A DNA stretch of 64,000 nt, taken from IMG/VR virus record IMGVR_UViG_3300017971_000019, positions 1 to 64,000 of that record, one strand, 5' to 3'. Positions 3,995 through 63,797 of the stretch are shown piece by piece (position 1 is the stretch's first letter; every line of letters starts with the position of its first letter). Under the pieces are notes generated by a model, which saw only the letters and a program-made list of their open reading frames with translations, was not told the DNA's origin and did no database searches. Made by a program: the position numbers and the translations under genes. The stretch is from a virus. Lineage: Duplodnaviria; Heunggongvirae; Uroviricota; Caudoviricetes.

Positions 3995-4028
3995 GGTTGC
4001 CTCCTCTCTTCGAATCAATGGCTCCCTG

Positions 4029-4226: not shown

Positions 4227-4240
4227 GGCTCCCTCCCTCT

Positions 4241-17701: not shown

Positions 17702-17874
17702 TGAACTGCTGCATCTGCGGGAACCAGGACAACGCCGTAGAGTGGTGCTCGATCTGTGAGCACTTCTTCTGCGGCGGTTGCCGTTGGAGCCTGTTTCATC
17801 GTGGCCGAGACGCATTGAAGCAGTGGCTTCTGAAGAAGCCGCCGAAGCACTGTAATCACAAGGGGGAGAGATGA
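17701..17874 (+). CDS. small Cys-rich protein (57 aa, GTG start; CxxC x3)
   Basis: Reading frame is open. The start overlaps the upstream stop and the stop overlaps the downstream ATG. Confidence 0.35.
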   Translation: MNCCICGNQDNAVEWCSICEHFFCGGCRWSLFHRGRDALKQWLLKKPPKHCNHKGER

Positions 17875-26378: not shown

Positions 26379-26401
26379 TTTTGAAAACGGGAGAGAGACC
26401 G

Positions 26402-47589: not shown

Positions 47590-50500
47590 ATGGCAAAGCT
47601 ATACCTCGATCCAGAGACAGGCGAAGAAGTCACAGCGAACGAGTTCAGGAGGCGTCGAGCCAGGAGGCAAGCCGCCTCTGAGGGGCAACCTATCGCTGAC
47701 TTCATGTCCCCGACGCGTCAGCTACTTGGGATCCCAGAGCCTGGGACCATGTTCTCTACCGAAGAGCAGAAGGACGTTCCAGAGGGTCATCTGTCTGGGT
47801 ATAGGAAGAGGAAGACTTACCTCGATCCGGCCACCGGAGAAGAGGTTGATGAGATTGAGTTCCGTGCCCGCAAGGCGAAGCGTGAGCGTGAGAAGGAAGA
47901 GCTAGATAAGAACGCAGCGGAGCGGAAGAGGGCCGAGGAGATAGCGGCGAAGGACCGCGAGATTGCGGAGAGGGTCACCCAGGGGATCCCGTTCGAGCCG
48001 CTTCGGAAGCTTGCCGCGTCGAAGCCAGCACGCCTTGCCATGGAGACCGCCACGGGGCTACCCCGCACCATCGGTTTGGACTTCCTCCTTGGCCCAGCCG
48101 AGTCTGACGTTCAGTTGCTGGGCGCCGGCGAGAGGGCCGCGACGAGGGCTGGCCGCAAGCGCGGCAGGGCCATGATGCCGACGGTTGGTGGTGGCGGAGT
48201 TCCTGGCGTCCCGGACATCCCGACCGGACTAGAGGCTGATGAGGACAGGTACGTCACAGATCTCCCGACCGGCGTCAAGGAGCTTGGCGACAGGACATGG
48301 GCGTCCGACCTAACCCAGGAGACCATCGACAAGATCAAGGCGATCCAGCTACCAGGCAGGAACCCGTTCACCGACGAGCCGCTCGCTGAGGGCGAGCAGC
48401 CGTACGCGTCTGTCGGCGGAAGTGTCGGGGTCTCGCCAAGGGTCGCTGAGGCCCTTCGCGATCCGTTCATCTACAACAACGAGGTCGAGTTCTCGCGTAC
48501 CGCCAGGTGGAGGTCCGGGATTGAGGAGGCCATTCGTCCAGCCATGTTCGGCGCTGGGGAGAGCTTCGAGACAGCGAAGGATGTCGCGCTCCCAGCCGCT
48601 GTTGCGTACGGCGCAGTTAGGCGACCATGGCACACGATTCCTGCTATCGCTGGTATCGAGCTTATGTCCATCCTTGGCGAGAAGGGCGCGAGGGCGGCTT
48701 CACAACACCTAGGCGAAGACGAAGAGCGGATGGCCCAGATCGGGCGAGAGATTCCGATGGCCCCTGCCGGCCTGAAGGTCGGCCCAGCATTGACGAAGGC
48801 GGGTCTCAGGGCTACATCTCCCCTACTGGGGAAGGCGAAGACTCGCAAGTGGCTTGCGCGGGGCGCTAGGACCAACAACAGTCGCGAAAGGTCCATTGAC
48901 CTTGAGGTGCAGCGAGTCACCGGGAAGACTCTGCTCCAGACTCTCCGAGACGTTGGGCGTGGCGCTAAGTGGTGGACTCAGGAGAGGACCACCGATGGCC
49001 CGTTCATGGCCATGAGGCGTGAGCTAGGTGCTCGTAAAGATCTGGCTAAGGGCTTCCAAACTCCGTACGCGAGGCGCGGCATCACTCAGGAAACAGCGGA
49101 GAAGCTGAGAGACCTCCAGGATCCGCGCTGGAGGGATAAGGCTGACTGGTCACAGCCTGTTGGGGAGAGGGGCGACTTCCTCGGATGGAGGGCGAATAAG
49201 CAGGGCAAGCTGGAGCCGGTCTACGCGCCGGCATCTCCAGTCAGAACTGATGCCCCGCCTGGCCCAGGCAGGGGTGTCATCTACGACCAGGAAGGCAACG
49301 TCAAGGACACGTATGACCTGGACGCGCAGGGCAAGCCTGTCGGTGCGTCTGGAGGAGTAGACGTTCCCGAAGCCGTTCGTCGCTACGCGCCGATGACCGC
49401 TGGGTACATCGCCCAGGGCATGACATTCTCGAAGTGGCCACTCCCTCTTGGAAGGTTCGCAGCCGGTCGTTTTGCAAACCTCGGTGCCAGAAGGCTTGTC
49501 TCCAGAATGCTGGAGGGTGTGAGGAGGAAGAAGCCCGCCCGCAACGTTGAGGCGTTCGACGCGGAGGCCAACGAGTTCGTGATGGTCCCCGAGGACGCAC
49601 TAATCAACAACCCTGCGAAGTACAAGACCAAGGGTCAGGGTGCGCGAATCCTCAAGGAGAGGGACGCTCTTCGTAAGGCGAGGGAGAAGGAAGCCGATCA
49701 GGCTCGCAAGGCCAAGGAAAAGGCGGACGCTGAGGCGAAGAAGGAGCAGGAGAAGCTCCAGAAGGCCGTAGAGGACGCGATCAAGCAGGCTGAGGCTGAG
49801 CAGCAGTCTCGCCAGGGCATGTCCTCGACGCTCTCCCCGCAGGAGGGCTCCAAGATCATGGAGATCATGGAGCACCAGGTTGCGGTAGAGCGCGTCATGA
49901 AGGAGATGGGCGTTGACCGCGTAGAGGCGGAGAGGATCCTCAAGCAGCGCGGCGATGTTACTGCTCCAGAGACTCCTATCGAGTCCGCGAAGTTCAAGTC
50001 TGGAGATATCACAGAAGCCGATATCTTGAAGGCTGCTCAGGATGGCGCGACCCCGGAACAGCTTCGCGCCATGCGCGAGAAGCTCGCCCAGAAGGGTGAG
50101 CCAACGAAGCCGGCAGAGCCTCCAAAGCCTGAGCCTCCTGCGGAGCCTGTCGCAGAGCCTGCCCCAACGAAGCCGAAGGCTCCCGAGGGTGAAGGCGGAG
50201 CCGAGACCGTTGAGTCTCTTGGTGGGACGGGACATCTCTCGAAGGGCCAGCTTGGTGCCTTCAGGCAGAGAGTGGAGATGGGCGAAGACCCGGTCACCGT
50301 CCTGAAGCAGATCAACGAGTACAGGCGGAAGAAGGGACAGTCGGTTCCAGAGTCGAAGCCTACTGAGCCGGCGAAGGCGCCGCCTGCTGAGCCTCCAGCG
50401 GACACGTCGCTCGACAGGACAAGCGGGACTATCCGCACGCGTCGAAAGAAGCAGGAGCGAGACAGGAATCTCGGTGAGGACGCCCCCGAGGACGCAGCCG

Positions 50501-53500
50501 TGTTTGAGCCCATCGTAAAGGGTCAGGAGGTTGGAGACGGAGTCAGGATCGGTGACACCTACGTAGACGTATCGGGCGAGACTCCACGCACTGTTCGCGT
50601 CGAGGGACAACTAGACACGCGTGGGAAGATCCGCCTTCATCTCGTTGACGCAAAGACGGGAGACTGGGTCTTGGGTGAGCCGACGAACGGGCACAGTTTC
50701 CTGAAGGGGCTTAGAAAGGACATCAAAGACGGCCTGATCGAGAAGCCAGCCGAGAGGCCAACCAAGCCAACCGCTCCGAAGGGCGGGAAGTCCGGTAAGG
50801 CTCAGGAGCCGTTCGACACGACCACGCCTGAGGGTCGCGCAAAGGCGTTCGCTCGCGAAGGTGGTCCTACCGACGCCGAGTGGAACCAGATGGGCGGCAA
50901 CATCGCGAAGCGTGCGTGGCTTGAGTCGCAGGGGAAGACAGGCGAGCCTCGCATGACCGGGCCTACGCCGGAAGGGCTTGAGGGGCCGGCGGGCAAGGCT
51001 CTCTCCGAGACGCAGACGCCTCCGACAGAGAAGCCGTCGAAGGGGAAGGGCAAGAAGAAGAAGGGCAAGCCTCGTCCAGGAGTCATCCGCAAGGGTGACG
51101 TTGTCGAGTTCGCGGACGGGACTCGCGGGATCGTCAAGGGCAAGGGAAGGAGCGGGGGCCTCAAGGTTCAGGTCGGAGAGACGACTCGTCTCGCCACACC
51201 GGACCAGGTGAAGAAGGTCGAAGCGAAGGCTCCGACTCCAGAGGAGCGCCAGGCTGCGCTCGACAAGGTCAAGGAACTCGGTGAAGGCAACAGGGGAATG
51301 CTGGAGCGCGAGTTCTACGAGTCCGGCCCAGAGGCGGCTGTCATTCTGGGCACGGAGAAGATGGGCCTCGAAGAGCCGGTAGTCCGCTCGTTCATCGAAT
51401 CCCTCCCTGAGACGAGGCCCCCAGCCACCCCAGCCGAAGCCGCTGTCGAGATCACGAAGGGCAGCTTCAAGGGCCAGAAGGGTGTCCCAATCGGGGAGGC
51501 CGACGCCAAGGGCGTGACCAACGTCATGCTCGAATCCGGCGAGGTCCAGCCCTTCAAGGCCGGCGAGTTCAAGGTGCTCAGGGGATCCGGGAAGGACGCA
51601 GATATTGCGGCCACCATCAAGAAGGCCGAGGAGGACGCTGGGATCGAGTGGGGAGAGCCCCTAAAGGGCCCTGAGAAGGCCCCAGAGGCTCCAGGAGCGC
51701 CTGTAGAGGGCAAGAAGGCCCCAGAGGCCGGGAAGCCGGCTACGGGCCGTAGGGGGGCTTGGAGCGGCCTTGACGCGGCTGTTCGAGAAGGGGACCAGGC
51801 GAGGGCCAGCAGCATCGCCCGAGGGGCTGTCAAGGACCCCGAGGCCAGCGCCGTGGTCGGCGGGCAGGGTGTCAGGGTCGGGGACGTGATCGAGTCCGGG
51901 CCGCACGCCGGGAAGATGGTTCTGGAGGTTCAGGACGGGGCCGTCGTCCAGATGACCAAGAAGAAGTTCACCGGGGGTGGGGGTCGCTACCAGGTCGGAC
52001 GGGTGACCACCGTCGGGGAACTCACCGCCCGCCGTGCCCGCCCGAACTACCAGGGCTACTACTCGCAGCTTGAGAGGGTGCTGGAGACTCCACACGTTCA
52101 GGAAACTCAGGTTGCCCACGACTGGCTCCGCTTCCTCAAGAAGCGCAAGCGCGGCGTGACTGCCGACGAACTCTACTGGACAGGCCTAGAGGAGTTCCTG
52201 AAGTCGAAGAAGCCGTGGGAGCGAGTAACCAAGGGCAAGCTCCTTCAGTACCTCAAGGACAACAAGGTTGAGTTGTCCGAGTGGAGGCAGGGCGACATCC
52301 ACCAAATCGACTTCAATAGCCCGGCCCAGGTGGACGCGTACGTTCGTATGTGGGAGCGCAGGGCTAGGGAGTCCGGTGTCTACACGGAGCAGGAAGTCCG
52401 CAACATCGGTGCCGCGATGCGTAACGACCCGATGTCTAGGATTGACCAACTCAGGGAGGACATCACGAAGCCTGAGTACGGCGACTACAAGGAACCGGGC
52501 GGAACGAACTACCGCGAGTTCATCGTGACGATCCCGTCGAAGAGTGTCCCGACTCCACTCCGCTATCGCGTCGAGAGCATGGACAGGTCCATTCCCCCGG
52601 AAAAGAAGGCGAGGGTGGACGAGCTAAACGAGGAGAAGGGCGCACTGGAAGCCGCCCTGGTCACAGAGTTCGGCGCAGTCTTCCGAGTGAGGAGGGGCGA
52701 GCCGAGAGTCAAGCCGCGCCACCTCAAGGATAAGGATCGAATCCTAGAGATCAACAAGGAGATCCAGAAGATCCGAGAAGAGGGCGGGGAACTCTGGACC
52801 GTCGAGTCTTACTGGGCAGACAACGGAGTGCAGGCGAAGTCTCCAGGGACAGGAGGGACTTACAAGTCCAAAGCGGAGGCAAAGGCGGCAGCGGAGAAAC
52901 TAGCCAAGGAGAAGCCAACCCACGGCAGGCTTCACGCCAAGTGGGACGCACCACACTTCTCGCATCTCAACGCACAAGGGGGCATCCTCTACCACATCCG
53001 CATGACGGACAGGATCGACCCGGCAACCGGAGAAAAGATCCTCTTCGCTGAGGAGTTCCAGTCCGATGCCGCATGGGACGCCAAGAAGAAGGGAGTAAGG
53101 AAGCCAAACAAGGCCTGGCAGAAGGATCTGGAGAGGTTCAACGAGCTTAGCGATAGGAATCGAGAGATCAGGAACAAGCGCGACACCTCTTCCCTGACTA
53201 AGGACGAGAAGCGTGCGCTCAAGGCGGAGTACGAGCGAAACTCCGAAGAGATGCAGCGCATCAACAACAAGTACGGCGAACACCCAGGCTCTGGCGTACG
53301 TGGCTTCATGGGTCGGAAGGACGTGCCTACCGAGATGCCGTACATCGAGTCCACCAACAAGTGGCTCGACCTGGCCACGAAGCGATTCATCAAGATGGCC
53401 GTAGAGGAAGGCTACGATCAGGTCCGCTTTACTTCCGGCTCGATGCAGACTCGTCGCTACGACCTCTCTCAGAGGGTGGATGAGGTCCGTTGGGATCCCG

Positions 53501-56500
53501 CAGAGAAGAGGCTAGAGGGATACAAGGACGGCGAGAACATCCTCAACGAGTACGATGTCCCTGCTGAGAAGCTCGCGGACTACATCGGTGAGGAACCGGC
53601 TGCGCGGCTCAGGAGGGCGGCGCAGAACTGGAAGGAGCCCGACCCGCTTGGTGGATGGGGGATCGAGCAGGCAAGGCGACCAGGCGAGTTCTACGTCATC
53701 GACCCGAATGGCCAGTACGTCTACACCAGGGAGGGTAAGAGGGACCTCTTCTACGGTAAGGATGAGGCCAGGAACTACATCGAGGAATCCATTCGTGAGT
53801 CTGGCGACACAGTGAGCCAGATCCCGGCAATCTCTGGACAGGATCTCTCGATGGGCTCCACTGGCCTCGCGAAGCTCTACGACGTGATGATTCCGCAGTC
53901 CTTCAACCGCGTCCTCAAGCCGTTCAGGACTCAGGGTGAGACCATCTACCGCCTAGAGGGAGACCGCCTGACGAAGACGGTCGAGGGCGCGAAGGGACCG
54001 AAGCTCGAAGAAGGGCAGATGGGGGAGAATTCGTACACCAAGAGGTACGAGGTCAGGGAGCACCCGGATCAGGCTCTGGCAAACCAGGGCGCAATGGCCA
54101 TCTATGATCTGGGCACCGAGACGTGGGCGAGGTCCACTGACCCACGTATGCCTATCGATCCTGATCTTATGGCGATGAGAAAGCGCCAGGGGGTAACGGA
54201 CACCACTGGAGCTAGGGCCAACTACTTCAAGAGCGCAGCCGACGCACGTCGCGTAGCGTCTGAGATGAACCTCGACTACGCTCACGACAGGATGGCTGAT
54301 GGCGTTCTTAGCCGCTTCAAGTACAACGTCGTTGATGCGAAGACAGGCAAGATCGTCAGGACGGTCAATGAGCCCTGGCAGACGGTGGACGCTGTGCGGG
54401 AACTCGAAGGCAAGAGTGGCCGCGAGTACGTTGTAGAGCCTGCCGGCGAAACCGTACACACCATCAGGATCCCGGACGAACTCAAGCGCCAGGTCGAGAA
54501 GGAAGGGTTCCCTCAGTACAAGATCGGCAAGGAAGACCTCGTAGAGACCCCGATCACGACGGAAGACGTGCGCATGGCTCTGCCAGAGGCGCTGCGTCCA
54601 CTCCTCAAGAGGGCCACGAGGACGGAGACCAGGCCGGCGGGGAAGGGGAAGGGAGAGGTTCGCGCAGACGCGAAGATGGGACTCCGTGCCGGCGACTGGT
54701 ACATCGACACTCCTCACGGTGGAAGGATCATCATCAAGCAGAACGGGTTCATCAGGATCGAGAACCCGGAGCAGTCGCTGGTCGGATACTCGCCGGAAGT
54801 CATCGCAGACGTGAAGGCCGGCAAGCGCGGCGCACTGGGCCGCATGGAGACGCCAGGCCAGGGTCCGCTGGTTCCGAAGTACCGCCGCAAGTACGGCATC
54901 GACCGCGACATGCAGATGCGCATCCTCAACGCGGGAGTCATCCCGCACGAGATGGGCCACATCTTCATCGACTACTTCGCGAGCCCCAGGGAGAAGGCAC
55001 GCATCGAATCCTGGTTCAGGGAGGAGATGGAGGCGAAGGGCCTAGAGAAGTATGACGAACTGTTCGCTGAGGGCTTCAGGGAGTGGTTCGAGTCCTACCG
55101 CTGGAAGAAGAAGCCTCGCAACGCTGTCGAGAGGGTGTACAAGGCGATCTACGAGTTCGTTGCGAACGTCTACGACACCTTCCGCCCGACAATCGAAGGC
55201 CAGTACAGGAAGGTCGCCCAGGGCAAGCCGTTCAAGCGTGGTCGCCACCAGGATGGATGGGTAGGAAGGACTGCTAAGGAGGCGTACCAGATCGCGGCTC
55301 GCGAGGTCGGAGACAGCGAAGCCAACTTCATGAAGTGGTTCAAGAAGTCTGTCGCCAACACCCAGTGGGACCAGATGAGCAAGGGCCAGATGGGCGGTCT
55401 CAAGCTTGGCAAGCACCCAGAGGGCTACCCGCACTACGGCCACGACAAGATGCCGTTGGAGCTATACCACGCGACCATCGCGAAGGCAGACTTCGACGCG
55501 TTCAAGCCTGGTAGCAGGCCAAGGTACGTGGACCCGGCCAACCCAGACGCCGACTACGGACGTGGCGTGGACGGCATGGGCATCTGGTTCGCAGAGGATG
55601 CCGAGTTCGCGAACTCCAAGCTCCGGTTCGACTGGATGGCTGAGGACATGAGGCGAGGCGGGCCTCCGCCGGACCACAACGCCATCCGCAACCCGGAGGG
55701 CCCCATTCCCGAAGGGGGAAGGATCATTCCCGCTTATCTCTCCCTCCAGAAGCCGCTCTTTGTACGCGAGAGGCGCGATCTCGACTACGAGGTAGCGAAG
55801 AAGTGGGCGCAGATCGAAGCCAAGGATCCCGCAAAGAGTGCGAAGGCCAAGAAGAGGAGCAAGAAGGCGAACAAGGCTCTCCTGAAGGTCGATAGGGACG
55901 TGAGGAACTACGTCAACGAGCTTGCCGACAAGTACGCCGTTCCGAAGGGTGGTGGAATCACGTTCCAGGACAGGCTGCTTATCGCCTACGACAGGATCAA
56001 CGCTGTCGAGCGTGCCAAGCTCATGGAGTACCGCAGGGCGGGTGAAAAGGCTAGGCTGGAAGCCGCTATCGCTGAGGCAGAGATGACCGGCAACCCGGAG
56101 GCGTACCTACAGACCCTCAGGCGCGGAGACCCGAAGGACATCGCGAGGGCCAAGAAGGCTCTCCAGTCCGAGGGCTACGACGGGTTCCTCGTGGGCGACG
56201 ACATGGGCTTCGGTCGCGCATGGGTGGTATTCGAGGGCGAGCAGATCAAGTCCTCCAGGGCGAACGTCGGGACGTACGACCCGAAGAACCCTGAGTACCG
56301 CCACATGATCGAGCCTGAGCGTGCGAAGAAGCTCAAGACCAGGAAGCACCTTCCAACAAGGCGGGAGTTCGCAGAGGCAGTCCAGAACACCAAGGGCGCG
56401 GCGATCACAGAGGATGGGCTCATCATGGAGCTTCAGCGTTGGCAGAAGCCAGACCAGGCTGGAGCACTCTCCATCAGGACCGGGGTCTTCTACCTACCTA

Positions 56501-59500
56501 AGGGTGACCGCAAGGCCAGCGCTTACAGGATCACTCCGAACTCGAAGCACACCGGGGCTGGTATCGCCTACGGCGGAACCGATAAGGTTGAGGGGCAGAC
56601 CCTCATCCGCAAGCCTCTGTTCGTGCGCGGAGCTACCGGAGGCAGGGCCCCAGAGGAAGCCTTCAAGATCATCAAGGGAGCCCCAGCGTTTTCGAAGCTC
56701 GAAGACCAGCTTTGGTCGATCCACATGAGCGACTACTCGATGCGCGAGTGGCCGGACATGATCCACGCGAAGGCTCGTGCAGAGAAGGCGGCGAAGGCCT
56801 ACTCCGAGGCTCGTGCAGAGCACGGCCAGGACTTCACGAAGTACGAGGACATCTACAACGAGTACCACGACGCCCAGAGGCTCTTGGCAACGACCCGCGA
56901 CAAGATCCAGACCAGTGAGATCGAGAGGGTCCTACAGGACTTCGGCGGCGACCCGTCCATGGCTCGCGACATTCTGGCCAACTCCAGGGAGGGCAACCAG
57001 CTTCGCTACGCGATCCAGGAGAACATCATCGCCCACGTCGTGAGGGACGAGGGCTTCGACGCTGTGGTCGGCTTCACGAAGGGCAAGAACGGAGCGAAGT
57101 TCTCCGAGGTCTTCGACGTTCGCGAGACCACGTACCCGGACACCGGGTATGTCCAATCTGACATCCACCCGTCATTCATCCCCGAGAGCGTCGGTCGCTA
57201 CCAGGTCGGGCAGAAGAAGGGCGACACGAGCACCCCAGAGTTCAAGAAGTGGTTCAGGAAGTCCACCATCAAGGACGGGAACAAGCCGAGGCCGGTGTAC
57301 CACGGTACTGGCAAGGAAGGATTCTTCGAGTTCGAGTGGCCAGAGCACGACCTCGGGTTCCACGTTGGGTCCAGGGCGCAGGCAGTCGAGGCCGGTGTCA
57401 CGAATAGGATCAGCAGGCTCAGCGAAGAGATGAGGGCTCTCCGGGCGGAGGCGCTTCCGTACGCACAAGCCGGGAAGGAAGTGCCGAAGGAGATCAAGGA
57501 CAAGATCGCCAAGAACGAGAAGGAGGCGAAGACGAGCGGGCGGATTCCTGGACAGGAGGGCTTCGAGGAACCACGCATGATCGAACTGTACGCTCGCGCA
57601 GAGAACCCGCTCCGTCTCCATGACGTTGGAGACAAGTGGGGCTACTACGCGTACGACTACCTACCAATCGGAAAGACCGTACAGGGCGGCAAGCCTGGGT
57701 TTACTCGCGAAGAGGTCCAGATGCTGAGGGATCTACCTAGGAGGTTCAGGCCGGCGGAGACAGTCAAGCTGATCAAGAGCAAGGGCTACGACAGCATCGT
57801 GTACAAGAACGAGCACGAGGGCAGGGTTTACGACAGAGCGACAGGAGAGCTAAAGTCCCGCGATGACTCCTACATCCTCTTCGACAAGAACCAGGTGAAG
57901 CAGACGAGCAACGTCACATGGGGAGAGGGCGGAGACTTCCGCTACCAGGTCGGGCCGAAGGGTGCTGGCAGCAACCTGAAGAGGTCACTGGAGAAGCTGG
58001 AGTCCACCCGCAAGGCCCGCAAGCCGATCAAGGGTGTGATGGACAGGAAGGCAGACCTCTCCCCTAGGTTGGTGAAGAAGATGGACAGGAAGGCTACTCC
58101 GAGGTTCTCGGTCGGAGAGGTCTCCGATGTCCTGCCGGAAGCGCTCAGGGGTATGCCCGAGATCTACAGGGACCAGTTGACGGACGCCCTCACCTCCAAG
58201 AGGTTCGAGGTCAAGATGACCGAGGACACGAAGAGTGACTGGAAGGGCACGATCTACCAGTACAGGCTTAGTCCGGCGCGTCCAAAGCACGCGAGGGTGG
58301 AGCCTCCGAGGTGGGAGGGCGAAGAGCCTAACGCCTGGTACGACCCAGAGATCGCGGAACTCAAGAGTACATCAGAGGGCGGGTTCCGACAGATCGGGTA
58401 CGACCTGAAGCCTGGCTGGACACGCAGCGTGGAAGACCTCACCTCTGGTGACGGTACGACCTACTTCCGTGGCATGAGCGCAGAGGAGTGGGTGGAGATC
58501 CAGCGCACAGGCAAGATCAGGTCACAGGGTGCCTACAACCTCGGTGACAAGCAAGTCGGCAAGACCTACTACTCGGTGAGCCCAGGACAGGCGGAGTCCT
58601 ACGCCGCCGGCTTCCAGCCGTGGCAGAGGACCCCAGCGCACGGGAAGAACGCGTACATCGTGGAGATCAGGAACCCGAAGAGGAAGGGCACCCTAGAGCA
58701 GGGTGATGAGCGTGGGGTTCCGGGCGAGATCAACGCCTCAGAGATCGTCAACGTGTACGAAGGCGTGCCGTATTACTTCAAGGACGGCAAGGTCGAGTAC
58801 ACGCCAGATACCGTCAGGGGGCCAGGTGGAGAGGGTTGGGTGAGCACCCACGTCGAGGGCTCTCGCTACTCCCCAAGCACACACGTTGCATGGCGCAAGA
58901 TCGATGGCGAGAAGGTAGCCAGGCTCCGCGCAGAGGCGGAGACGGTGACCCTCACGGACGGCGCGATGGCTGTCGAGCCAGCGGCCAGGTACGCGCTCTC
59001 AGAGGCTGGACGCAAGAGGCTCCGTGAGAAGCAGATGGAAGAGGCCAGGAAGATCGCTGGCGAGGGTGCCCTGGTCGATGAGGCGACGATGGAGAAGTAC
59101 TTCCGCGACGAGGCCTCCATCGCCCGCGAGGTCCACGACGACTTCTCCCGTCTCGGCTACAAGGAGAGCTTCGCTGACCATCTCAGGGCCATCAAGACGA
59201 ACGCCGACGAGTACTACATGAGGAGCCTCGACTTCACCACGATGTGCAGGAAGAGGTACGTCCTCGGCGCAACCATCGACGCCATCCAGCAGAAGCTTGG
59301 CCGTCCTCTCGACGCCAAGGACATCATGAGGGTGGGAGCCCAGATGAGGCTCCACGGCATTGAGACCGCCTGCGGTCCATGCTACGTAGAGTCGAAGCGT
59401 CTCCAGAACGCTGCCATCATGGAGCAGTTGAAGACCGGCTGGTACAGGCCAATGCCGAAGATCGACCCGAAGACCGGCAAGAAGATGCGCGATGACAACG

Positions 59501-62067
59501 GGAAGATCATCAAGGTCAAGACCTGGATTCCACCGATCCCGAAGAAGCTCCACGACAAGCTCCTCACCTCCGATGGCATCGCTGAGATCGCTGCGAACTA
59601 CCCACAGGAGCGCATCAAGATGGGCTACCTGTACGGGGACAGGAAGGTGAAGGCCCCAGAGGTGCGCGTCTCCTACAAGGGAGAGATCCTCAGCAAGGTG
59701 GACAAGGAGGGCGGGCTCACTGACGGAATGGTAGCCAAGATGAACAAGCGTTCCGGCCTCAGGTGGCAGTCCTGGTCGGACTTCGAGGTTCCGCACATCA
59801 TCGACGCCATGCAGGCAATCGCGGACATGCACCTACGCGGGCTCAAGGGCCACGCCTACACGAAGGTCCCCGAGTTCGTTGAGGTGCTCGCGCCTACCGG
59901 CCTGGCAATCAACATGAGCATGATCCCGAAGGACATCGGGATCAGGAACGGAAAGCTCTGGTTCAACGATGCCGAGTCCTTCCCGTTCGACTTCGGGCTC
60001 AGGATGAGGAAGAAGTACAAGAACGTGGGCTTCGAGACCATCGGCGTGAACGACGCGCAGATCAAGATGGCCCTGGCCGATCCTCGCATCGACTACGTGA
60101 TCCCGTACCACCAGTCCGGCCTCAACAGGAACTACATGAAGATGGTGGGCATGGGCAAGTGGCAGGACTACACGGGTGAGCAGAACTTCACCGTGCGCGG
60201 GACCACCAAGCAGTTGAGCACTGGCAAGTGGCAGGGCAAGGCCTCCAGCAAGAAGGTTCTCTGGGACGAGTACAAGGGCGACCTGAACCTCCTCGACAAG
60301 CTCGCGAAGGAGCGCGGCATCGATCCTCCGTTTGTGAGGATGAGGCACTGGAAGGGATACGAGAAGCTTCTGAACGACCGCCGCAGCTTCATCGAGAATG
60401 GCAAGGGCTACATCAACCAGGACGTGGTGAAGCCAGAGTTCGATATGCGTGCGATCAAGAGGATCATGCGCGAGTACACCCCACCAGACATCAAGCCTGC
60501 CGGCGTGGTCGTGGACGAGTTCGTGAAGGGCGAGATCCCAGCGGAGCCGAGGCAGAGGTACTCCCTTGGCCTACCGAAGAAGACGGAGGGCGTGACTAGG
60601 GGAGGCAGGACCGTCACCCCGAGGAACAAGCCTTCCCAGCCGGCTAGGAGGATCATGGAGCACATGGCTCCTAACCTCACCGGGAAGACGATCCTCGACT
60701 ACGGGGCGGGGTACGGGGTTGACCTCAAGCACTACGAGGGTAGCGGCATCTTCAAGGGCGTCCAGGGCTACGACCCGAACCACATGCAAACGAAGCCTCG
60801 CAAGGCAGACATCGTGACGAACACCTTCGTGGCCAACGTGCTGGAGCCCGTTGACCGCCATGCTATGCTTCGCTCCGCATACAAGCACGCGAACGAGGCA
60901 CTCATCGTGAGTGTGCGTGCTGACAAGATCCCCGGAACGCCGCACCTGGATGGGGTGATCACCAAGAAGGACACGTTCCAGAAGTCCTACAAGAAGGGAG
61001 AGCTTGTGAAGGAACTGGGAGAACTGTTCGGCAAGGAGAACGTCGAGGAGCTTCGCTACGGCGTCTCTGGGGCGCAGATGGCCATCGTCACGAAGCCGAA
61101 GGGGAAGCTGAAGGGCGAAGATCAGCCCAGGTTCTCGATCACGGACCCGGTCCTCGTCGCAGGCGGATCCGCAGGGCGCACCTCCATCCCAACCGCGAAG
61201 GTCACCGAGCCAGCATTCACGATCAAGGCGACCCCGAAGGAGCCGATCAGGTTCACGAGGGGTGACAAGGTGTACAGGCTGTCCGAGCGTGGAGTGGCCC
61301 GCCTCATGGGCGTCTCCGACAGCTACAAGCTGCCCGAGAACAAGGCGCTGGCTCGCACGGTTCTGGGGAACGGCGTCCCACCGCCGCTCGCAAGGGCCGT
61401 CGTGCTGCCGCTCCTCAAGGGCATCAAGAAGCCGACAGCCGTGACCCTCTTCTCTGGCGGGAGCCTGGTAGAGGAAGGGCTGAAGGATAAGGTCCGCTTC
61501 CTGGGCGGACACGAGATCAGCGCGGACATCGCCGGGGTGGCTCGTTCGAACGGACACAACACCCGCATCGTGGACGTGACGAAGGCTGACTTCTCGGACT
61601 TCGCAGGGGCTGACTGGCTCCACGCCTCCCCGGTGTGCAAGAACTTCTCGGCGGCGAAGAACCAGTCCGGTGAGGTTCCTCTGGACATCCGCTCCGCAGA
61701 GGCTGTGGTCAGGGCAATCGATCAGGTGGGGCCAACAGTGGTCACCATCGAGAACGTGAAGGGCTACCGTGGCTCGGAGGCCCTACAGTTGATCATCGAG
61801 AAGCTCAAGAAGGAGGGCTACAACGTGGACGCCGCCGTATACGACGCGGCTGACTACGGAACCCCTCAGCACCGCCAGAGGCTGCTCGTGAGGGCCATCA
61901 AGGGCAAGCTTCTTCCGCCTCCTCCGATGAAGCAGTCGCACGTCTCCTGGTGGGACGCTGTGAAGGATCTGAAGCACCCGCTCGATCCGAAGGGCCTGGC
62001 GGACTGGCAGAAGCGTAGGCTGGCTCCCCTGGAGCACATGATCGTGGGGGTGGGCGATGCCCCTTAG
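47590..62067 (+). CDS. giant multidomain 'polyvalent' virion protein (4825 aa) with several identified domains
   Basis: Uninterrupted ORF of 14,478 nt with coding-like GC at third codon positions. Its start follows the stop of the upstream gene after a 3-nt gap. Identified elements: an N-terminal tandem 23-aa repeat; a K/E/A/P-rich linker; an HEMGH zincin motif at nt 54946-54960; a possible ADP-ribosyltransferase motif set; a repeated GYD module; a class-I SAM methyltransferase at about nt 60640-60990; and a C-terminal C5-cytosine DNA methyltransferase at about nt 61430-61930 with motifs FSGGS, PVCKNFS, ENV and QHRQR. Confidence 0.85.
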   Translation: MAKLYLDPETGEEVTANEFRRRRARRQAASEGQPIADFMSPTRQLLGIPEPGTMFSTEEQKDVPEGHLSGYRKRKTYLDPATGEEVDEIEFRARKAKREREKEELDKNAAERKRAEEIAAKDREIAERVTQGIPFEPLRKLAASKPARLAMETATGLPRTIGLDFLLGPAESDVQLLGAGERAATRAGRKRGRAMMPTVGGGGVPGVPDIPTGLEADEDRYVTDLPTGVKELGDRTWASDLTQETIDKIKAIQLPGRNPFTDEPLAEGEQPYASVGGSVGVSPRVAEALRDPFIYNNEVEFSRTARWRSGIEEAIRPAMFGAGESFETAKDVALPAAVAYGAVRRPWHTIPAIAGIELMSILGEKGARAASQHLGEDEERMAQIGREIPMAPAGLKVGPALTKAGLRATSPLLGKAKTRKWLARGARTNNSRERSIDLEVQRVTGKTLLQTLRDVGRGAKWWTQERTTDGPFMAMRRELGARKDLAKGFQTPYARRGITQETAEKLRDLQDPRWRDKADWSQPVGERGDFLGWRANKQGKLEPVYAPASPVRTDAPPGPGRGVIYDQEGNVKDTYDLDAQGKPVGASGGVDVPEAVRRYAPMTAGYIAQGMTFSKWPLPLGRFAAGRFANLGARRLVSRMLEGVRRKKPARNVEAFDAEANEFVMVPEDALINNPAKYKTKGQGARILKERDALRKAREKEADQARKAKEKADAEAKKEQEKLQKAVEDAIKQAEAEQQSRQGMSSTLSPQEGSKIMEIMEHQVAVERVMKEMGVDRVEAERILKQRGDVTAPETPIESAKFKSGDITEADILKAAQDGATPEQLRAMREKLAQKGEPTKPAEPPKPEPPAEPVAEPAPTKPKAPEGEGGAETVESLGGTGHLSKGQLGAFRQRVEMGEDPVTVLKQINEYRRKKGQSVPESKPTEPAKAPPAEPPADTSLDRTSGTIRTRRKKQERDRNLGEDAPEDAAVFEPIVKGQEVGDGVRIGDTYVDVSGETPRTVRVEGQLDTRGKIRLHLVDAKTGDWVLGEPTNGHSFLKGLRKDIKDGLIEKPAERPTKPTAPKGGKSGKAQEPFDTTTPEGRAKAFAREGGPTDAEWNQMGGNIAKRAWLESQGKTGEPRMTGPTPEGLEGPAGKALSETQTPPTEKPSKGKGKKKKGKPRPGVIRKGDVVEFADGTRGIVKGKGRSGGLKVQVGETTRLATPDQVKKVEAKAPTPEERQAALDKVKELGEGNRGMLEREFYESGPEAAVILGTEKMGLEEPVVRSFIESLPETRPPATPAEAAVEITKGSFKGQKGVPIGEADAKGVTNVMLESGEVQPFKAGEFKVLRGSGKDADIAATIKKAEEDAGIEWGEPLKGPEKAPEAPGAPVEGKKAPEAGKPATGRRGAWSGLDAAVREGDQARASSIARGAVKDPEASAVVGGQGVRVGDVIESGPHAGKMVLEVQDGAVVQMTKKKFTGGGGRYQVGRVTTVGELTARRARPNYQGYYSQLERVLETPHVQETQVAHDWLRFLKKRKRGVTADELYWTGLEEFLKSKKPWERVTKGKLLQYLKDNKVELSEWRQGDIHQIDFNSPAQVDAYVRMWERRARESGVYTEQEVRNIGAAMRNDPMSRIDQLREDITKPEYGDYKEPGGTNYREFIVTIPSKSVPTPLRYRVESMDRSIPPEKKARVDELNEEKGALEAALVTEFGAVFRVRRGEPRVKPRHLKDKDRILEINKEIQKIREEGGELWTVESYWADNGVQAKSPGTGGTYKSKAEAKAAAEKLAKEKPTHGRLHAKWDAPHFSHLNAQGGILYHIRMTDRIDPATGEKILFAEEFQSDAAWDAKKKGVRKPNKAWQKDLERFNELSDRNREIRNKRDTSSLTKDEKRALKAEYERNSEEMQRINNKYGEHPGSGVRGFMGRKDVPTEMPYIESTNKWLDLATKRFIKMAVEEGYDQVRFTSGSMQTRRYDLSQRVDEVRWDPAEKRLEGYKDGENILNEYDVPAEKLADYIGEEPAARLRRAAQNWKEPDPLGGWGIEQARRPGEFYVIDPNGQYVYTREGKRDLFYGKDEARNYIEESIRESGDTVSQIPAISGQDLSMGSTGLAKLYDVMIPQSFNRVLKPFRTQGETIYRLEGDRLTKTVEGAKGPKLEEGQMGENSYTKRYEVREHPDQALANQGAMAIYDLGTETWARSTDPRMPIDPDLMAMRKRQGVTDTTGARANYFKSAADARRVASEMNLDYAHDRMADGVLSRFKYNVVDAKTGKIVRTVNEPWQTVDAVRELEGKSGREYVVEPAGETVHTIRIPDELKRQVEKEGFPQYKIGKEDLVETPITTEDVRMALPEALRPLLKRATRTETRPAGKGKGEVRADAKMGLRAGDWYIDTPHGGRIIIKQNGFIRIENPEQSLVGYSPEVIADVKAGKRGALGRMETPGQGPLVPKYRRKYGIDRDMQMRILNAGVIPHEMGHIFIDYFASPREKARIESWFREEMEAKGLEKYDELFAEGFREWFESYRWKKKPRNAVERVYKAIYEFVANVYDTFRPTIEGQYRKVAQGKPFKRGRHQDGWVGRTAKEAYQIAAREVGDSEANFMKWFKKSVANTQWDQMSKGQMGGLKLGKHPEGYPHYGHDKMPLELYHATIAKADFDAFKPGSRPRYVDPANPDADYGRGVDGMGIWFAEDAEFANSKLRFDWMAEDMRRGGPPPDHNAIRNPEGPIPEGGRIIPAYLSLQKPLFVRERRDLDYEVAKKWAQIEAKDPAKSAKAKKRSKKANKALLKVDRDVRNYVNELADKYAVPKGGGITFQDRLLIAYDRINAVERAKLMEYRRAGEKARLEAAIAEAEMTGNPEAYLQTLRRGDPKDIARAKKALQSEGYDGFLVGDDMGFGRAWVVFEGEQIKSSRANVGTYDPKNPEYRHMIEPERAKKLKTRKHLPTRREFAEAVQNTKGAAITEDGLIMELQRWQKPDQAGALSIRTGVFYLPKGDRKASAYRITPNSKHTGAGIAYGGTDKVEGQTLIRKPLFVRGATGGRAPEEAFKIIKGAPAFSKLEDQLWSIHMSDYSMREWPDMIHAKARAEKAAKAYSEARAEHGQDFTKYEDIYNEYHDAQRLLATTRDKIQTSEIERVLQDFGGDPSMARDILANSREGNQLRYAIQENIIAHVVRDEGFDAVVGFTKGKNGAKFSEVFDVRETTYPDTGYVQSDIHPSFIPESVGRYQVGQKKGDTSTPEFKKWFRKSTIKDGNKPRPVYHGTGKEGFFEFEWPEHDLGFHVGSRAQAVEAGVTNRISRLSEEMRALRAEALPYAQAGKEVPKEIKDKIAKNEKEAKTSGRIPGQEGFEEPRMIELYARAENPLRLHDVGDKWGYYAYDYLPIGKTVQGGKPGFTREEVQMLRDLPRRFRPAETVKLIKSKGYDSIVYKNEHEGRVYDRATGELKSRDDSYILFDKNQVKQTSNVTWGEGGDFRYQVGPKGAGSNLKRSLEKLESTRKARKPIKGVMDRKADLSPRLVKKMDRKATPRFSVGEVSDVLPEALRGMPEIYRDQLTDALTSKRFEVKMTEDTKSDWKGTIYQYRLSPARPKHARVEPPRWEGEEPNAWYDPEIAELKSTSEGGFRQIGYDLKPGWTRSVEDLTSGDGTTYFRGMSAEEWVEIQRTGKIRSQGAYNLGDKQVGKTYYSVSPGQAESYAAGFQPWQRTPAHGKNAYIVEIRNPKRKGTLEQGDERGVPGEINASEIVNVYEGVPYYFKDGKVEYTPDTVRGPGGEGWVSTHVEGSRYSPSTHVAWRKIDGEKVARLRAEAETVTLTDGAMAVEPAARYALSEAGRKRLREKQMEEARKIAGEGALVDEATMEKYFRDEASIAREVHDDFSRLGYKESFADHLRAIKTNADEYYMRSLDFTTMCRKRYVLGATIDAIQQKLGRPLDAKDIMRVGAQMRLHGIETACGPCYVESKRLQNAAIMEQLKTGWYRPMPKIDPKTGKKMRDDNGKIIKVKTWIPPIPKKLHDKLLTSDGIAEIAANYPQERIKMGYLYGDRKVKAPEVRVSYKGEILSKVDKEGGLTDGMVAKMNKRSGLRWQSWSDFEVPHIIDAMQAIADMHLRGLKGHAYTKVPEFVEVLAPTGLAINMSMIPKDIGIRNGKLWFNDAESFPFDFGLRMRKKYKNVGFETIGVNDAQIKMALADPRIDYVIPYHQSGLNRNYMKMVGMGKWQDYTGEQNFTVRGTTKQLSTGKWQGKASSKKVLWDEYKGDLNLLDKLAKERGIDPPFVRMRHWKGYEKLLNDRRSFIENGKGYINQDVVKPEFDMRAIKRIMREYTPPDIKPAGVVVDEFVKGEIPAEPRQRYSLGLPKKTEGVTRGGRTVTPRNKPSQPARRIMEHMAPNLTGKTILDYGAGYGVDLKHYEGSGIFKGVQGYDPNHMQTKPRKADIVTNTFVANVLEPVDRHAMLRSAYKHANEALIVSVRADKIPGTPHLDGVITKKDTFQKSYKKGELVKELGELFGKENVEELRYGVSGAQMAIVTKPKGKLKGEDQPRFSITDPVLVAGGSAGRTSIPTAKVTEPAFTIKATPKEPIRFTRGDKVYRLSERGVARLMGVSDSYKLPENKALARTVLGNGVPPPLARAVVLPLLKGIKKPTAVTLFSGGSLVEEGLKDKVRFLGGHEISADIAGVARSNGHNTRIVDVTKADFSDFAGADWLHASPVCKNFSAAKNQSGEVPLDIRSAEAVVRAIDQVGPTVVTIENVKGYRGSEALQLIIEKLKKEGYNVDAAVYDAADYGTPQHRQRLLVRAIKGKLLPPPPMKQSHVSWWDAVKDLKHPLDPKGLADWQKRRLAPLEHMIVGVGDAP

Positions 62068-62227
62068 CGAGTACTACGGCGGGAAGGGCGCAAAGGTCAT
62101 GAAGGACATGGTCAAGCGCTATGGCAAGAAGAAGGGCAAGCGGGTGTTCTACGCGACCCACAACAAGCAGAAGAAAAAGGACTCCGTGGCTGGTATGCTG
62201 GAGTCACACTTTGGAGGTGGACGATGA
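62057..62227 (+). CDS. small lysine-rich basic protein (56 aa)
   Basis: Open frame overlapping the stop of the giant gene. Under 60 aa, so absent from the ORF track. Confidence 0.35.
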   Translation: MPLSEYYGGKGAKVMKDMVKRYGKKKGKRVFYATHNKQKKKDSVAGMLESHFGGGR

Positions 62228-62376
62228 AGGGTAAGGGCAAGGCCATTCTGAAGGCCGGAACAGGCGGAGGCGGCAAGGGAAAGCCGTCCCTCGCAGCAAA
62301 GCCGTACGTGGGCAACAAGGGTGGTCAGGTCCGTTCGGGCAAGGCCTCCAACGCCAGCAAGTACTCGAAGAGGTGA
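62224..62376 (+). CDS. small Lys/Gly-rich basic protein (50 aa)
   Basis: ATGA overlap with the upstream gene. Confidence 0.35.
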   Translation: MKGKGKAILKAGTGGGGKGKPSLAAKPYVGNKGGQVRSGKASNASKYSKR

Positions 62377-62380
62377 CACC

Positions 62381-62956
62381 ATGCCAGCGCCACTGTTGAA
62401 CTCTGCATTCAGTGCAATCAGGTCAGGGATGTCGAAGGCCCCAGACATGTCTGGCTACGCTGGAGCCGGCGGCGCTGAGAAGTGGATGGCTGAGTCCGGC
62501 GGCAACATGGATCAGTACAACCAGCAGATGAAGGCCTACAAGGGTCAGGGTCAGGGGCAGCCGCCGCCACAGGGGCAGCCGCCGTCAAAGCAGGGCGGGC
62601 AGGGCGCGAGCTATGCGATGCCGAGGCCTGCGCCACAGAACGGACAGGAGCAGCGTACAGCGCCACCGCCTCCACCACCACCACAGCCAGGAGGTGGTGG
62701 AAGCTTTATGGATCGCTTCAGGAACATTGCGCAGGCTAGCGCAGGCTTGCCGACCTCTGGAGGGGACGCTTTGCTAAGCGCGGTCACAGGGATTCCTGGG
62801 CTTGGCAGCATAGCGAGTATGCTTGGCGGACTCTTTGGGGGTGGCCCGATGAGGGGCCCTTCTGCTGCTGACGGTCAGCGCATCAACGCTGAGAGATTGG
62901 CTGCGGCGCAGGGAGACCCGAATGCGCCACAGGGATACGGTGGATACGGAGGATAG
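62381..62956 (+). CDS. Gly/Gln/Pro-rich low-complexity protein (191 aa)
   Basis: The ATG at 62381 lies 4 nt after the upstream stop. ORF track (62321..62956, trimmed). Confidence 0.45.
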   Translation: MPAPLLNSAFSAIRSGMSKAPDMSGYAGAGGAEKWMAESGGNMDQYNQQMKAYKGQGQGQPPPQGQPPSKQGGQGASYAMPRPAPQNGQEQRTAPPPPPPPQPGGGGSFMDRFRNIAQASAGLPTSGGDALLSAVTGIPGLGSIASMLGGLFGGGPMRGPSAADGQRINAERLAAAQGDPNAPQGYGGYGG

Positions 62957-62958
62957 AA

Positions 62959-63126
62959 ATGAAGGGTTACAACAAGCACATGAAGACGGGCCAGCAGCCC
63001 TCGGGCTCCAGGATCAAGACCACCCGTCCCCCAGGCAAGGCCACCAAGGGCTCTCAGAGCAACAGCGCCAAGCCCAACATGAAGACCGGGCCGAACTACG
63101 GCGGGCCCCACGAGAAGGAGATGTAG
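62959..63126 (+). CDS. small lysine-rich basic protein (55 aa)
   Basis: Open frame immediately after the upstream stop. Confidence 0.35.
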   Translation: MKGYNKHMKTGQQPSGSRIKTTRPPGKATKGSQSNSAKPNMKTGPNYGGPHEKEM

Positions 63127-63128
63127 CC

Positions 63129-63503
63129 ATGGCGAATACGAAGAGGGGTCAGGCGGTCGAGTCCTTCGACAACATGATGAAGGAAGGCGTCAGAAAGAGG
63201 CGGGCGAAGACGAAGAGGGGCCAGGCGGTCGAGTCCTTCGACAAGATGATGAAGGAGGGCGTCAGAAAGAGGCGGAAGGGGCAGACCCTCTCCGAGTACA
63301 CCAAGGGGCTCAAGAAGAAGAAGAAGAAGCCGTCCCTGGACGAACTCTCCCTAGGCAGAACAAGCGTGTCCGACATGGCGAAGAGGGCGAGAAGGGGCGT
63401 CATGAGCAGCGGCGGTACGCGTGCCAAGAAGAAGAAGGGCGGCATGTCGATTGACGACAAGCTCAGGTGGGGCGTGTACAAGAGGAAGAGCGGTAAGTCA
63501 TGA
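63129..63503 (+). CDS. lysine/arginine-rich basic protein (124 aa) with a 24-aa tandem repeat
   Basis: TKRGQAVESFD(N/K)MMKEGVRKRR(AK/KG) appears twice at nt 63138-63281 with a 72-nt period. Also a KKKKKKP run. Confidence 0.5.
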   Translation: MANTKRGQAVESFDNMMKEGVRKRRAKTKRGQAVESFDKMMKEGVRKRRKGQTLSEYTKGLKKKKKKPSLDELSLGRTSVSDMAKRARRGVMSSGGTRAKKKKGGMSIDDKLRWGVYKRKSGKS

Positions 63504-63721
63504 AGAAGCCAGTTGGCAAGAAGCCAGGCCGCAAGCGGAAGAAGAGCCTCAGTCTCGACGCCCTCTCTGAGGCGCTGGAGAATGAGAAGGCCATGAAGGT
63601 CCCCGCTCCACCTCGGAAGAAGCGCAGGAGGGCCCCGAAGATGAAGCAGGGGAAGTGGGGCACTCAGGAACCAGCAGCGAAGCCCAACTACAAGGGCAAT
63701 CGCATGGGAGAGGGCTACTAG
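63500..63721 (+). CDS. small lysine/arginine-rich basic protein (73 aa)
   Basis: ORF track. ATGA overlap. Last plus-strand gene. Confidence 0.45.
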   Translation: MKKPVGKKPGRKRKKSLSLDALSEALENEKAMKVPAPPRKKRRRAPKMKQGKWGTQEPAAKPNYKGNRMGEGY

Positions 63722-63723
63722 GC

Positions 63724-63797
63724 TGGAAGGGGCGGGGGGAGTCGAACCCCCGCTGCCTGGTTCAAAGCCAGGTGCTCTGCCGTTGAGCTACGCCCCT
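63724..63797 (-). tRNA. tRNA-Gln (anticodon UUG), with the CCA end encoded
   Basis: The reverse complement folds as a cloverleaf: acceptor stem AGGGGCG/CGCCCCU, U8, D arm GCUC-AACGGCA-GAGC, anticodon arm CCUGG-CUUUGAA-CCAGG, T arm GGGGG-UUCGACU-CCCCC, and a 3' terminal UCCA. Confidence 0.8.

Follow-up and report, generated by a model that had tools for sequence, protein, structure and literature searches.

There is precedent for a DNA methyltransferase residing in a very large phage protein whose gene lies with virion genes. The methylase-helicase dyad typified by DarB of phage P1 has this arrangement and has been proposed to protect injected DNA (Iyer et al. 2017, PMC5512222). Methylases of the DarB type are EcoKI/TaqI-like N6-adenine enzymes with an NPP(Y/F) motif, and they have LPD36 and a SNF2 ATPase as flanking elements. 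In its main text the same paper, which deals with polyvalent proteins, describes adenine methylases and does not mention cytosine methylases; a zincin-like MPTase domain is common in polyvalent proteins but not obligatory (PMC5512222). Natural circular permutation has been described for C5-cytosine methyltransferases of restriction-modification (R-M) systems, including M.BssHII, M.Alw26I, M2.Eco31I, M.Esp3I and M2.BsaI, with 27 in REBASE (PMC5944983).

The DNA analyzed here (the window) is a stretch of 64,000 nucleotides from a virus of the Caudoviricetes, IMG/VR record IMGVR_UViG_3300017971_000019. We are highly confident that it encodes a polyvalent-type phage protein containing a permuted C5-methyltransferase module, which occupies the last ~300 of 4825 residues. 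A protein identical to this one (P0121) is encoded on a JGI metagenome contig. The relevant features are as follows.

47590-62067, plus strand: giant open reading frame, 4825 aa, polyvalent-type phage protein, frame without interruption
55450-56274, plus strand: ART-PolyVal ADP-ribosyltransferase domain, aa 2621-2895 (PF18760, E=3.5e-15, score 57.5 bits with the cutoff at 31.2)
60607-61011, plus strand: Dnd-related class I methyltransferase-like domain, the second such domain of the giant protein, aa 4340-4474 (TIGR04096, E=2.8e-24)
61126-62022, plus strand: complete circularly permuted C5-cytosine methyltransferase module, aa 4513-4811
61147-61272, plus strand: second half of the variable/target-recognition region (PVLVAGGSAG ... 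PAFTIKAT ...), N-terminal to motif IX; when un-permuted it aligns after the WQxxRL helix of canonical-order clade members; low pLDDT
61273-61335, plus strand: motif IX (YRLSERGVARLMGVSDSYKLP), which lines up with residues ~270-295 of M.HaeIII and with motif IX of DNMT1
61366-61401, plus strand: motif X (GNGVPPPLARAV), aligning to GNAVPxxLA of M.HaeIII and DNMT1; upstream of motif I
61447-61467, plus strand: motif I (LFSGGSL), SAM-binding loop, aligning to LFSGAGG of M.HaeIII
61504-61521, plus strand: motif II (GGHEIS) with acidic residue E4642 (E128 of alignment A1), invariant in 44 sequences
61627-61650, plus strand: motif IV (SPVCKNFS), catalytic Cys4683 at 61636-61638; P167 and C169 (A1 numbering) invariant in 44 sequences
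61747-61764, plus strand: motif VI (IENVKG), aligning to ENVKG of M.HaeIII; E207 and N208 invariant in 44 sequences
61867-61887, plus strand: motif VIII (QHRQRLL), aligning to QDRKRVF of M.HaeIII; R248 and R250 invariant in 44 sequences
61888-62022, plus strand: first half of the variable region (LPPPP...WWDAVKDL...WQKRRL), placed C-terminally by the permutation; collinear with the segment after motif VIII of canonical clade members
62023-62064, plus strand: C-terminal tail of 14 aa (APLEHMIVGVGDAP), non-conserved and unmatched in every relative

The original prediction placed a C5-cytosine DNA methyltransferase at the C terminus of the giant protein, and evidence from profiles, structure and conservation bears this out. 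PF00145 matched the module with 99.2 bits (cutoff 22), and E-values across three profile libraries ranged from 1e-24 to 1e-39. The TIGR00675 score of 86 bits lies under the full-length cutoff of 100.65, as is expected because a permuted domain matches in two pieces. The C5-methyltransferase fold was recovered with confidence in a predicted structure, in which both target-recognition halves have low confidence. Motifs I, II, VI (ENV), VIII (QxRxR), IX and X were all found, F-S-G-G-S in motif I being the sole deviation among them, and those named in the prediction (I, IV, VI and VIII) each align to their M.HaeIII counterpart. The catalytic Cys is present: Cys4683 aligns with C71 of M.HaeIII, and the C71S entry 3ubt has Ser in the same column. 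M.HaeIII and M.HhaI share with the module the fold and catalytic motifs I, II, IV, VI, VIII, IX and X, but their motifs run linearly from I to X, motif IV reads Pro-Cys-Gln, and both occur as free-standing enzymes of R-M systems. The module is complete and probably active.

What did not hold is the claim that the motifs follow the canonical Dcm order. This fails for the whole domain because motifs IX and X (61273-61401) precede motif I (61447), and the linear I-to-X order is not found. The blocks instead run: second target-recognition half, IX, X, I, II, III, IV, VI, VIII, first target-recognition half. The chain is broken ~45 aa past motif VIII, dividing the variable region between the two ends. 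Once un-permuted, the sequence aligns collinearly to canonical-order clade members, and BLAST against other giant open reading frames gave non-collinear pairs of matches; in one of them, residues 4614-4811 correspond to 1748-1956 of the relative L007 and residues 4506-4609 to its residues 1957-2059. Matches to relatives stop at WQKRRL. Like the module, the enzymes of the M.BssHII group have IX and X ahead of I-VIII, a permutation site that falls, between VIII and IX, in the variable region and an intact catalytic domain (PMC5944983). However, the members of that group are free-standing R-M methylases with the entire target-recognition region (>100 aa) at the N terminus, whereas the present module belongs to a different clade, is fused into a giant protein and has its region split. 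The regular expression used for the REBASE search in that study does not match motif I of the module (T-L-F-S-G-G-S), and neither SPVC nor GNGVPP occurs in the published alignment of the M.BssHII group (PMC5944983). Together with the fact that the closest relatives of the module are canonical-order enzymes (45-49% identity), the absence of these strings points to a permutation that may have arisen independently of the M.BssHII/M.Alw26I group.

These closest relatives belong, as does the module by its sequence, to a distinct clade of C5-methyltransferases that we refer to as SPVC. We sampled the clade through its best 150 representatives at 50% identity; 70 of these are at least 1000 aa long, 40 are at least 3000 aa long and 12 have the permuted order. 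Among the relatives with a permuted module, two (L001 and L008) lie between portal and coat/capsid genes, and others are found within proteins of 3000-5000 aa that have further modules in common with the window protein. Two standalone permuted relatives (P0008 and P0004) adjoin DNA polymerase A and DnaB. In the broader clade, the standalone ORF010R of the Planktothrix phage PaV-LD is 33% identical to the module and has the same 'WY.A..DL...WQ..RL' helix after motif VIII and a 'PSFTI' element, but it differs in its canonical order, in having SPPCQ as motif IV and in its location in a replication module.

The giant protein itself shares several features with the polyvalent proteins that Iyer et al. 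(2017) described: giant size, unrelated enzymatic domains including ART-PolyVal, a late-gene context with portal and terminase, and shuffled modules. It combines several unrelated effector domains (ART-PolyVal, Dnd-related methyltransferase-like and C5-methyltransferase), and its modules recur in differing order in P0122, P0127, P0129 and L011. One segment resembles a protein of the Planktothrix phage Pag-Yong1 annotated as 'large polyvalent protein'. The Dnd-related domain lies immediately upstream of the C5 module; its TIGR04096 match covers the N-terminal 144 of 478 profile positions and it also weakly matches Methyltransf_23 in Pfam. Like DarB, the protein is very large, contains a DNA methyltransferase domain and is encoded with virion genes. 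It differs from DarB in that the methylase is a C5-cytosine enzyme and its neighbor is the Dnd-related domain, and in that no helicase or translocase partner was detected. Pfam and PHROG scans of the whole giant protein found no helicase or SNF2 family, and the C5 family gave their only DNA-methylase matches; the DarB-like combination of N6-adenine methylase, LPD36 and SNF2 ATPase is not present. The MPTase, MuF and LPD families of Pfam had no match. An HEMGH motif occurs at aa 2453, in a region kept in relatives. Since no peptidase family was found for this region in Pfam or PDB, proteolytic processing of the giant protein is speculative.

Upstream of the giant gene, on the same strand, are genes for terminase, portal, major head protein, a virion structural protein and an SU10-type adaptor, and in this podovirus-like phage the giant gene follows those for adaptor and tail. 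At least 16 six-base palindromes are wholly absent from the genome. Of the 1820 hexamers with an expected count of at least 15, nine are absent and all nine are palindromes. This avoidance of restriction sites is extreme and fits restriction pressure.

On balance we favor an explanation in which the permuted C5-methyltransferase is delivered with the virion and has a DarB-like anti-restriction role; the module is a mobile one that phages have repeatedly built into giant polyvalent proteins whose genes lie among those for the virion. The giant protein would be packaged inside the capsid and ejected along with the DNA, and the methylase, either as part of the protein or proteolytically released, would then methylate phage DNA at a short site, leaving host type II restriction enzymes unable to cut it. 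Such an activity would complement the wholesale loss of 6-bp palindromes from the genome. The earlier suggestion that a virion-tethered methylase acts on incoming DNA is plausible. P1 DarB and the polyvalent proteins offer precedents (PMC5512222), and contextual support comes from the adaptor and tail genes, the ART-PolyVal domain, the location of relatives and the avoidance of sites. We regard virion delivery with protection of incoming DNA as about as likely as not.

In a competing scenario, the module is active as a C5-methylase on DNA but works only within the cell, late in infection, modifying progeny DNA before packaging as phage orphan methylases do, and the fusion serves only to co-regulate expression. 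As the product of a late gene, the giant protein is present during DNA replication and packaging. In addition, P0008 and P0004 lie in replication modules, which shows that this type of enzyme does not need virion delivery and also serves as an ordinary intracellular phage methylase; the related canonical enzyme ORF010R lies beside a replicative helicase. However, the recurrence of the module in giant proteins and in portal-to-capsid blocks is hard to explain through expression alone, and delivered effectors typically carry ART-PolyVal domains (PMC5512222). We consider an exclusively intracellular role rather unlikely.

It could also be argued that the module is catalytically impaired and acts as a DNA-binding or base-flipping decoy, by occupying sites or as a dominant negative. 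Motif IV lacks the Pro-Cys dipeptide, reading S-P-V-C-K with Val where Pro is near-universal, and the last Gly of motif I is replaced by Ser; either the Val before Cys4683 or this Ser could lower or change activity. Nevertheless, SPVCK is present in 97 of the 150 best representatives, Val being the norm of this large clade, standalone enzymes included, and the last-Gly position of motif I differs among clade members (R, E or S), with F and the first G invariant in alignment A2. None of the catalytic residues checked, E (II), P..C (IV), EN (VI) and RxR (VIII), varies among 44 relatives, and the SAM contacts of motifs X and II are kept. A dN/dS of 0.13 against the nearest relative (L006) indicates purifying selection. 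A decoy is thus very unlikely.

We give still less weight to the possibility that the fold serves another substrate or cofactor, with tRNA as the substrate in the manner of DNMT2, or with Cx-SAM as the carboxymethyl donor, as for PDB 8yf3. DNMT2 and the C5-carboxymethyltransferase 8yf3 are among the structural neighbors, and an uncharacterised second methyltransferase-like domain adjoins the module, but by both sequence and fold the module matches DNA enzymes best (M.HaeIII, M.HhaI and the prophage methyltransferase 3g7u), DNMT2 matches are weaker in sequence (E 0.02-0.2), and a non-exhaustive look through the window revealed no CmoA-like gene. A chance resemblance or decayed remnant, in whose favor only the atypical residues of motifs I and IV speak, is refuted by the results of the profile and fold searches, and purifying selection argues against it as well.

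The module probably represents a known strategy, the delivered anti-restriction methylase, in a new form rather than a new kind of system. One tentative extension, which we think less likely than not, starts from the presence of both the Dnd-related domain and a permuted C5 module in P0122, P0127 and P0129 as well as in the window protein. Permuted SPVC methylases may be an independent lineage that forms with the Dnd-related domain a conserved modification pair in giant ejected proteins, protecting incoming DNA at the few GC-rich sites that have not been purged, for example GCCGGC. If this is true, the pair would be the cytosine-modifying equivalent of the adenine-methylase/helicase dyad of DarB.

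Judged by its sequence, the C5 module of the giant protein resembles C5-cytosine DNA methyltransferases far beyond what chance would produce. The protein is encoded by a single uninterrupted ORF in the window (47590-62067, + strand; 4825 aa), in whose frame GC at the three codon positions is 0.64/0.45/0.84; long antisense ORFs across the C5 region gave no family matches and are of the kind that 60% GC commonly produces. Searches with the giant protein matched PF00145 in Pfam (E=4.2e-28; 99 bits vs a cutoff of 22), TIGR00675 'dcm' in NCBIfam (E=3e-24) and PHROG 116 'DNA methyltransferase' (E=2e-39), and M.HaeIII, M.HhaI and DNMT1 are phmmer matches of the module, so that the C5-methyltransferase identity proposed from motifs in the original prediction was recovered by profile. 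The motif strings on which that proposal was built all lie in the last ~300 residues of the protein:

61447-61467, + strand, motif I (LFSGGSL)
61627-61650, + strand, motif IV (SPVCKNFS)
61747-61764, + strand, motif VI (IENVKG)
61867-61887, + strand, motif VIII (QHRQRLL)

Where the original prediction needed correction was in the limits and the topology of the domain, which it had placed at 61430-61930 in the canonical order of a Dcm-type enzyme. The nearest relative (P0001 on locus L006, 74% identity) is homologous from aa 4513 onward and all matches to relatives end at aa 4811, and the module is therefore 61126-62022, followed by an unconserved tail of 14 aa. Its Pfam and PDB matches are split in two pieces: aa 4618-4780, with motifs I-VIII, align to M.HaeIII residues 4-190, and aa ~4552-4608 (YRLSERGVARLMGVSDSYKLP ... 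GNGVPPPLARAV) align with motifs IX and X in the C-terminal part of M.HaeIII and DNMT1. Given that the IX-X piece (61273-61401) precedes motif I, the domain is circularly permuted. When the module was cut between motifs X and I and rejoined canonically, it became collinear end to end with canonical-order relatives such as P0005, P0006, P0010-14, P0023 and P0026, the old chain ends joining at a short linker that runs from a conserved 'WQxxRL' helix to a 'P-x-x-V-x-GGS' strand within the variable (target-recognition) region. BLAST against giant ORFs of IMG/VR gave the same picture, in that window residues 4614-4811 correspond to 1748-1956 of L007 and window residues 4506-4609 to the immediately adjoining 1957-2059; this non-collinear pattern recurs in L009-L012, L016, L053 and L087.

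Two possible traces of how the permutation arose were considered and rejected. P0138, P0141 and similar proteins looked like intermediates with IX-X on both sides of the core; each has a single motif X, and upstream the alignment had spuriously run on into a peptidase-like region. Likewise, the tail string HMIVGVGDAP, which under a duplication-truncation model would be a vestige of a duplicated PVLVAGGSAG strand, is unconserved and finds no support in the alignment. In a neighbour-joining tree, monophyly of the permuted set had a bootstrap of 0.2 and the permuted sequences fell near the base of the small-recognition-region subclade, a placement in which one permutation event and several are indistinguishable.

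When 1.84 billion representatives were searched exhaustively with phmmer, 5486 matched, 450 of them at E<=1e-30; one of the matches is the window protein (P0121, recorded on a JGI metagenome contig). Among the best 150 of the 5486, 70 are at least 1000 aa long and 40 at least 3000 aa (the longest 7058 aa), and the motif order is canonical in 105 and permuted in 12. The permuted set makes three groups: (i) standalone enzymes (P0128, P0007/P0008 and P0004), with P0008 and P0004 in replication modules, next to DNA polymerase A and DnaB; (ii) mid-sized proteins with the module at the C-terminus (P0001, P0003, P0125 and P0126), the P0003 gene on L001 being flanked by a P22-type portal gene and a coat gene; and (iii) giant proteins with the module internal (P0122, P0123, P0124, P0127 and P0129). 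At L008, the permuted module lies mid-way in an 1850-aa protein whose gene is between the portal and major head genes. Locus searches were effective with the smaller alignment of relatives (A2), the larger (A1) being too diverse, and a single-protein pattern scan of IMG/VR gave no confirmed relative. Many IMG/VR contigs at first passed as permuted on the grounds that query residues 3-297 were covered, but motif order and BLAST showed nearly all of them to be canonical; their coverage had come from adding up two non-collinear pieces, and among those contigs only L008 is permuted. The canonical-order form occurs within ORFs >5000 aa on more than 70 IMG/VR contigs and one [Ruminococcus] lactaris contig, and C5 modules are thus common in giant polyvalent-type proteins. 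These viral contigs (L012-L086 from IMG/VR, mostly sample 3300045988, and L087 from [Ruminococcus] lactaris) are 30-75 kb long and carry a canonical-order SPVC C5-methylase near residue 3400 of ORFs that are longer than the >5000 aa recorded and overrun the 10-kb flank.

Several signs point to a module under functional constraint. The columns invariant in a 44-sequence alignment are the motif II Glu, the motif IV Pro and Cys with the next Ser, the Glu-Asn of ENV and both Arg of QxRxR, and the window module keeps them all. Its motif IV reads S-P-V-C-K vs the textbook P-C-Q, and SPVCK is normal throughout the clade, occurring in 97 of the best 150 representatives. In motif I the window module has F-S-G-G-S and its nearest relative F-S-G-G-G; elsewhere in the clade this last position varies among R, E and S. 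Relative to L006, dN/dS (Nei-Gojobori) is 0.13, with dS near saturation.

The rest of the giant protein is best read as that of a polyvalent protein. The other 4512 residues had no match in a PDB sequence search; two domains were identified by profile:

aa 2621-2895, ART-PolyVal (PF18760, E=3.5e-15)
aa 4340-4474 (60607-61011, + strand), class I methyltransferase-like domain directly upstream of the C5 module

The second is Dnd-related: its match to TIGR04096 ('DNA phosphorothioation-associated putative methyltransferase'; E=2.8e-24) covers the N-terminal third of the profile. Three further giant proteins (P0122, P0127 and P0129) combine this Dnd-related domain with a permuted C5 module, and the HEMGH region and the 3810-4317 module are common to them and the window protein as well. 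The order of modules differs from that of the window protein, as in P0122 and P0127 the HEMGH region is followed by the C5 module and the Dnd-related domain is C-terminal; this is domain shuffling as described for polyvalent proteins. The HEMGH region (aa ~2289-2550) is named for a zinc-peptidase-like motif at 54946-54960 (+ strand), is conserved in P0122, P0123, P0127 and P0129, where the C5 module comes directly after it, and had no Pfam or PDB match; that it is a processing peptidase is only a guess. Residues ~3607-3773 (58408-58908, + strand) are 35% identical to part of a protein of Planktothrix phage Pag-Yong1 that is annotated as a 'large polyvalent protein'. Their counterpart in Synechococcus phage MinM2 is annotated RelA/SpoT, and by eye the stretch (YFRG...YYSVS...ERGVPGE) resembles an R-S-E ADP-ribosyltransferase.

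The window is from a phage, as its virion genes, all before the giant gene and on the same strand, attest:

11311, same strand, terminase
12939, same strand, portal
22523, same strand, major head protein
24489, same strand, virion structural protein
34641, same strand, SU10-type adaptor

Coming after terminase, portal, head and adaptor, the giant gene therefore occupies the position that genes for internal or ejection proteins have in podoviruses. Nothing in GenBank is close to this phage: megablast with 24 kb of the window found no near relative among GenBank phages, and its capsid protein shares only 24-26% identity with the counterparts from Mx9 (Myxococcus) and from Brucella podophages. 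Other genes of the region merit mention. Between the portal and capsid genes, in an unusual place for a nucleic-acid enzyme, is a DNA repair exonuclease homologue (17871-19181, + strand; phrog_704, E=3.5e-114), and just after the virion structural protein gene, within the virion block, an ORF (26381-27817, + strand) fuses a methyltransferase-like N-terminus to radical SAM and SPASM domains. Directly 3' of the giant gene, 5-6 small ORFs (62056-63721, + strand) encode very basic, low-complexity products rich in Lys, Arg and Gly, one with an internal direct repeat (KRGQAVESFD.MMKEGVRKRR, x2). Just past the late operon, on the opposite strand, is a tRNA-Gln (anticodon TTG; 63724-63797, - strand); it could be either a tRNA of the phage or the attachment site of a prophage.

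On the best-supported reading, which takes P1 DarB and the scheme proposed by Iyer et al. 2017 (PMC5512222) as its models, the giant protein would be packaged and then ejected with the DNA, and its C-terminal module would methylate cytosines of phage DNA, blocking restriction enzymes whose sites persist in the genome. An equally possible substrate of the methylase is progeny DNA, at the late stage of infection at which the giant protein is made; the two roles are compatible. The original prediction of a virion-tethered, anti-restriction methylase is supported in part: the analysis establishes the identity and topology of the domain, the constraint on its sequence, its recurrence in giant phage proteins and its gene context, and activity, packaging, timing, target site and protection are inferred.

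The composition of the genome bears on restriction as well. Among the 1820 hexamers with a Markov expectation of at least 15 across the 64 kb, nine are absent, every one palindromic (CTCGAG, GTCGAC, GACGTC, CGATCG, CACGTG, CCGCGG, CCCGGG, CGCGCG and GAGCTC); seven more palindromes, expected 6-15 times, are also missing from the window, and GCGCGC and TCCGGA occur once each. There is no avoidance of GCCGGC (48 observed vs 34 expected), GGATCC, TGATCA, CGTACG or TGGCCA, and 5-mer statistics of the window gave no signal. Many type II systems have evidently left their mark on the lineage, and palindrome avoidance fits an anti-restriction role of the methylase without proving one. Reading the target site of the enzyme from these statistics was abandoned, as the hexamer pattern marks purged sites and not the site of the methylase.

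C5-methylases, permuted C5-methylases and polyvalent proteins are all already known, and this is not a new kind of system. Natural circularly permuted C5-methyltransferases are few (among them M.BssHII, M.Alw26I, M2.Eco31I, M.Esp3I and M2.BsaI; 27 in REBASE; PMC5944983), and the M.BssHII group has the same kind of topology as the window module. The module nevertheless appears, on sequence comparison, to belong to a separate lineage, since (i) the published alignment of the M.BssHII group has neither the SPVC nor the GNGVPP string; (ii) the recognition region is wholly N-terminal in that group and here divided over both ends, about 45 aa at each; (iii) the closest relatives of the module are canonical-order SPVC enzymes; and (iv) its motif I falls outside the pattern of the REBASE search for permuted enzymes (PMC5944983). 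The main text of the polyvalent-protein paper describes adenine methylases coupled to SNF2 ATPases and leaves cytosine methylases unmentioned (PMC5512222). If the module is active and delivered, virion proteins would carry cytosine methylation into the cell, beyond the adenine methylation of the DarB type, and the natural circularly permuted C5-methyltransferases would gain a second lineage, apparently of independent origin. With canonical and permuted forms at 45-50% identity in one clade, the SPVC enzymes are a compact natural test case for the origin of a permutation and for what it changes, and for protein engineers, who have had to construct such a topology artificially, the module (~300 aa) is a candidate small DNA methylase whose chain begins and ends in the recognition domain.
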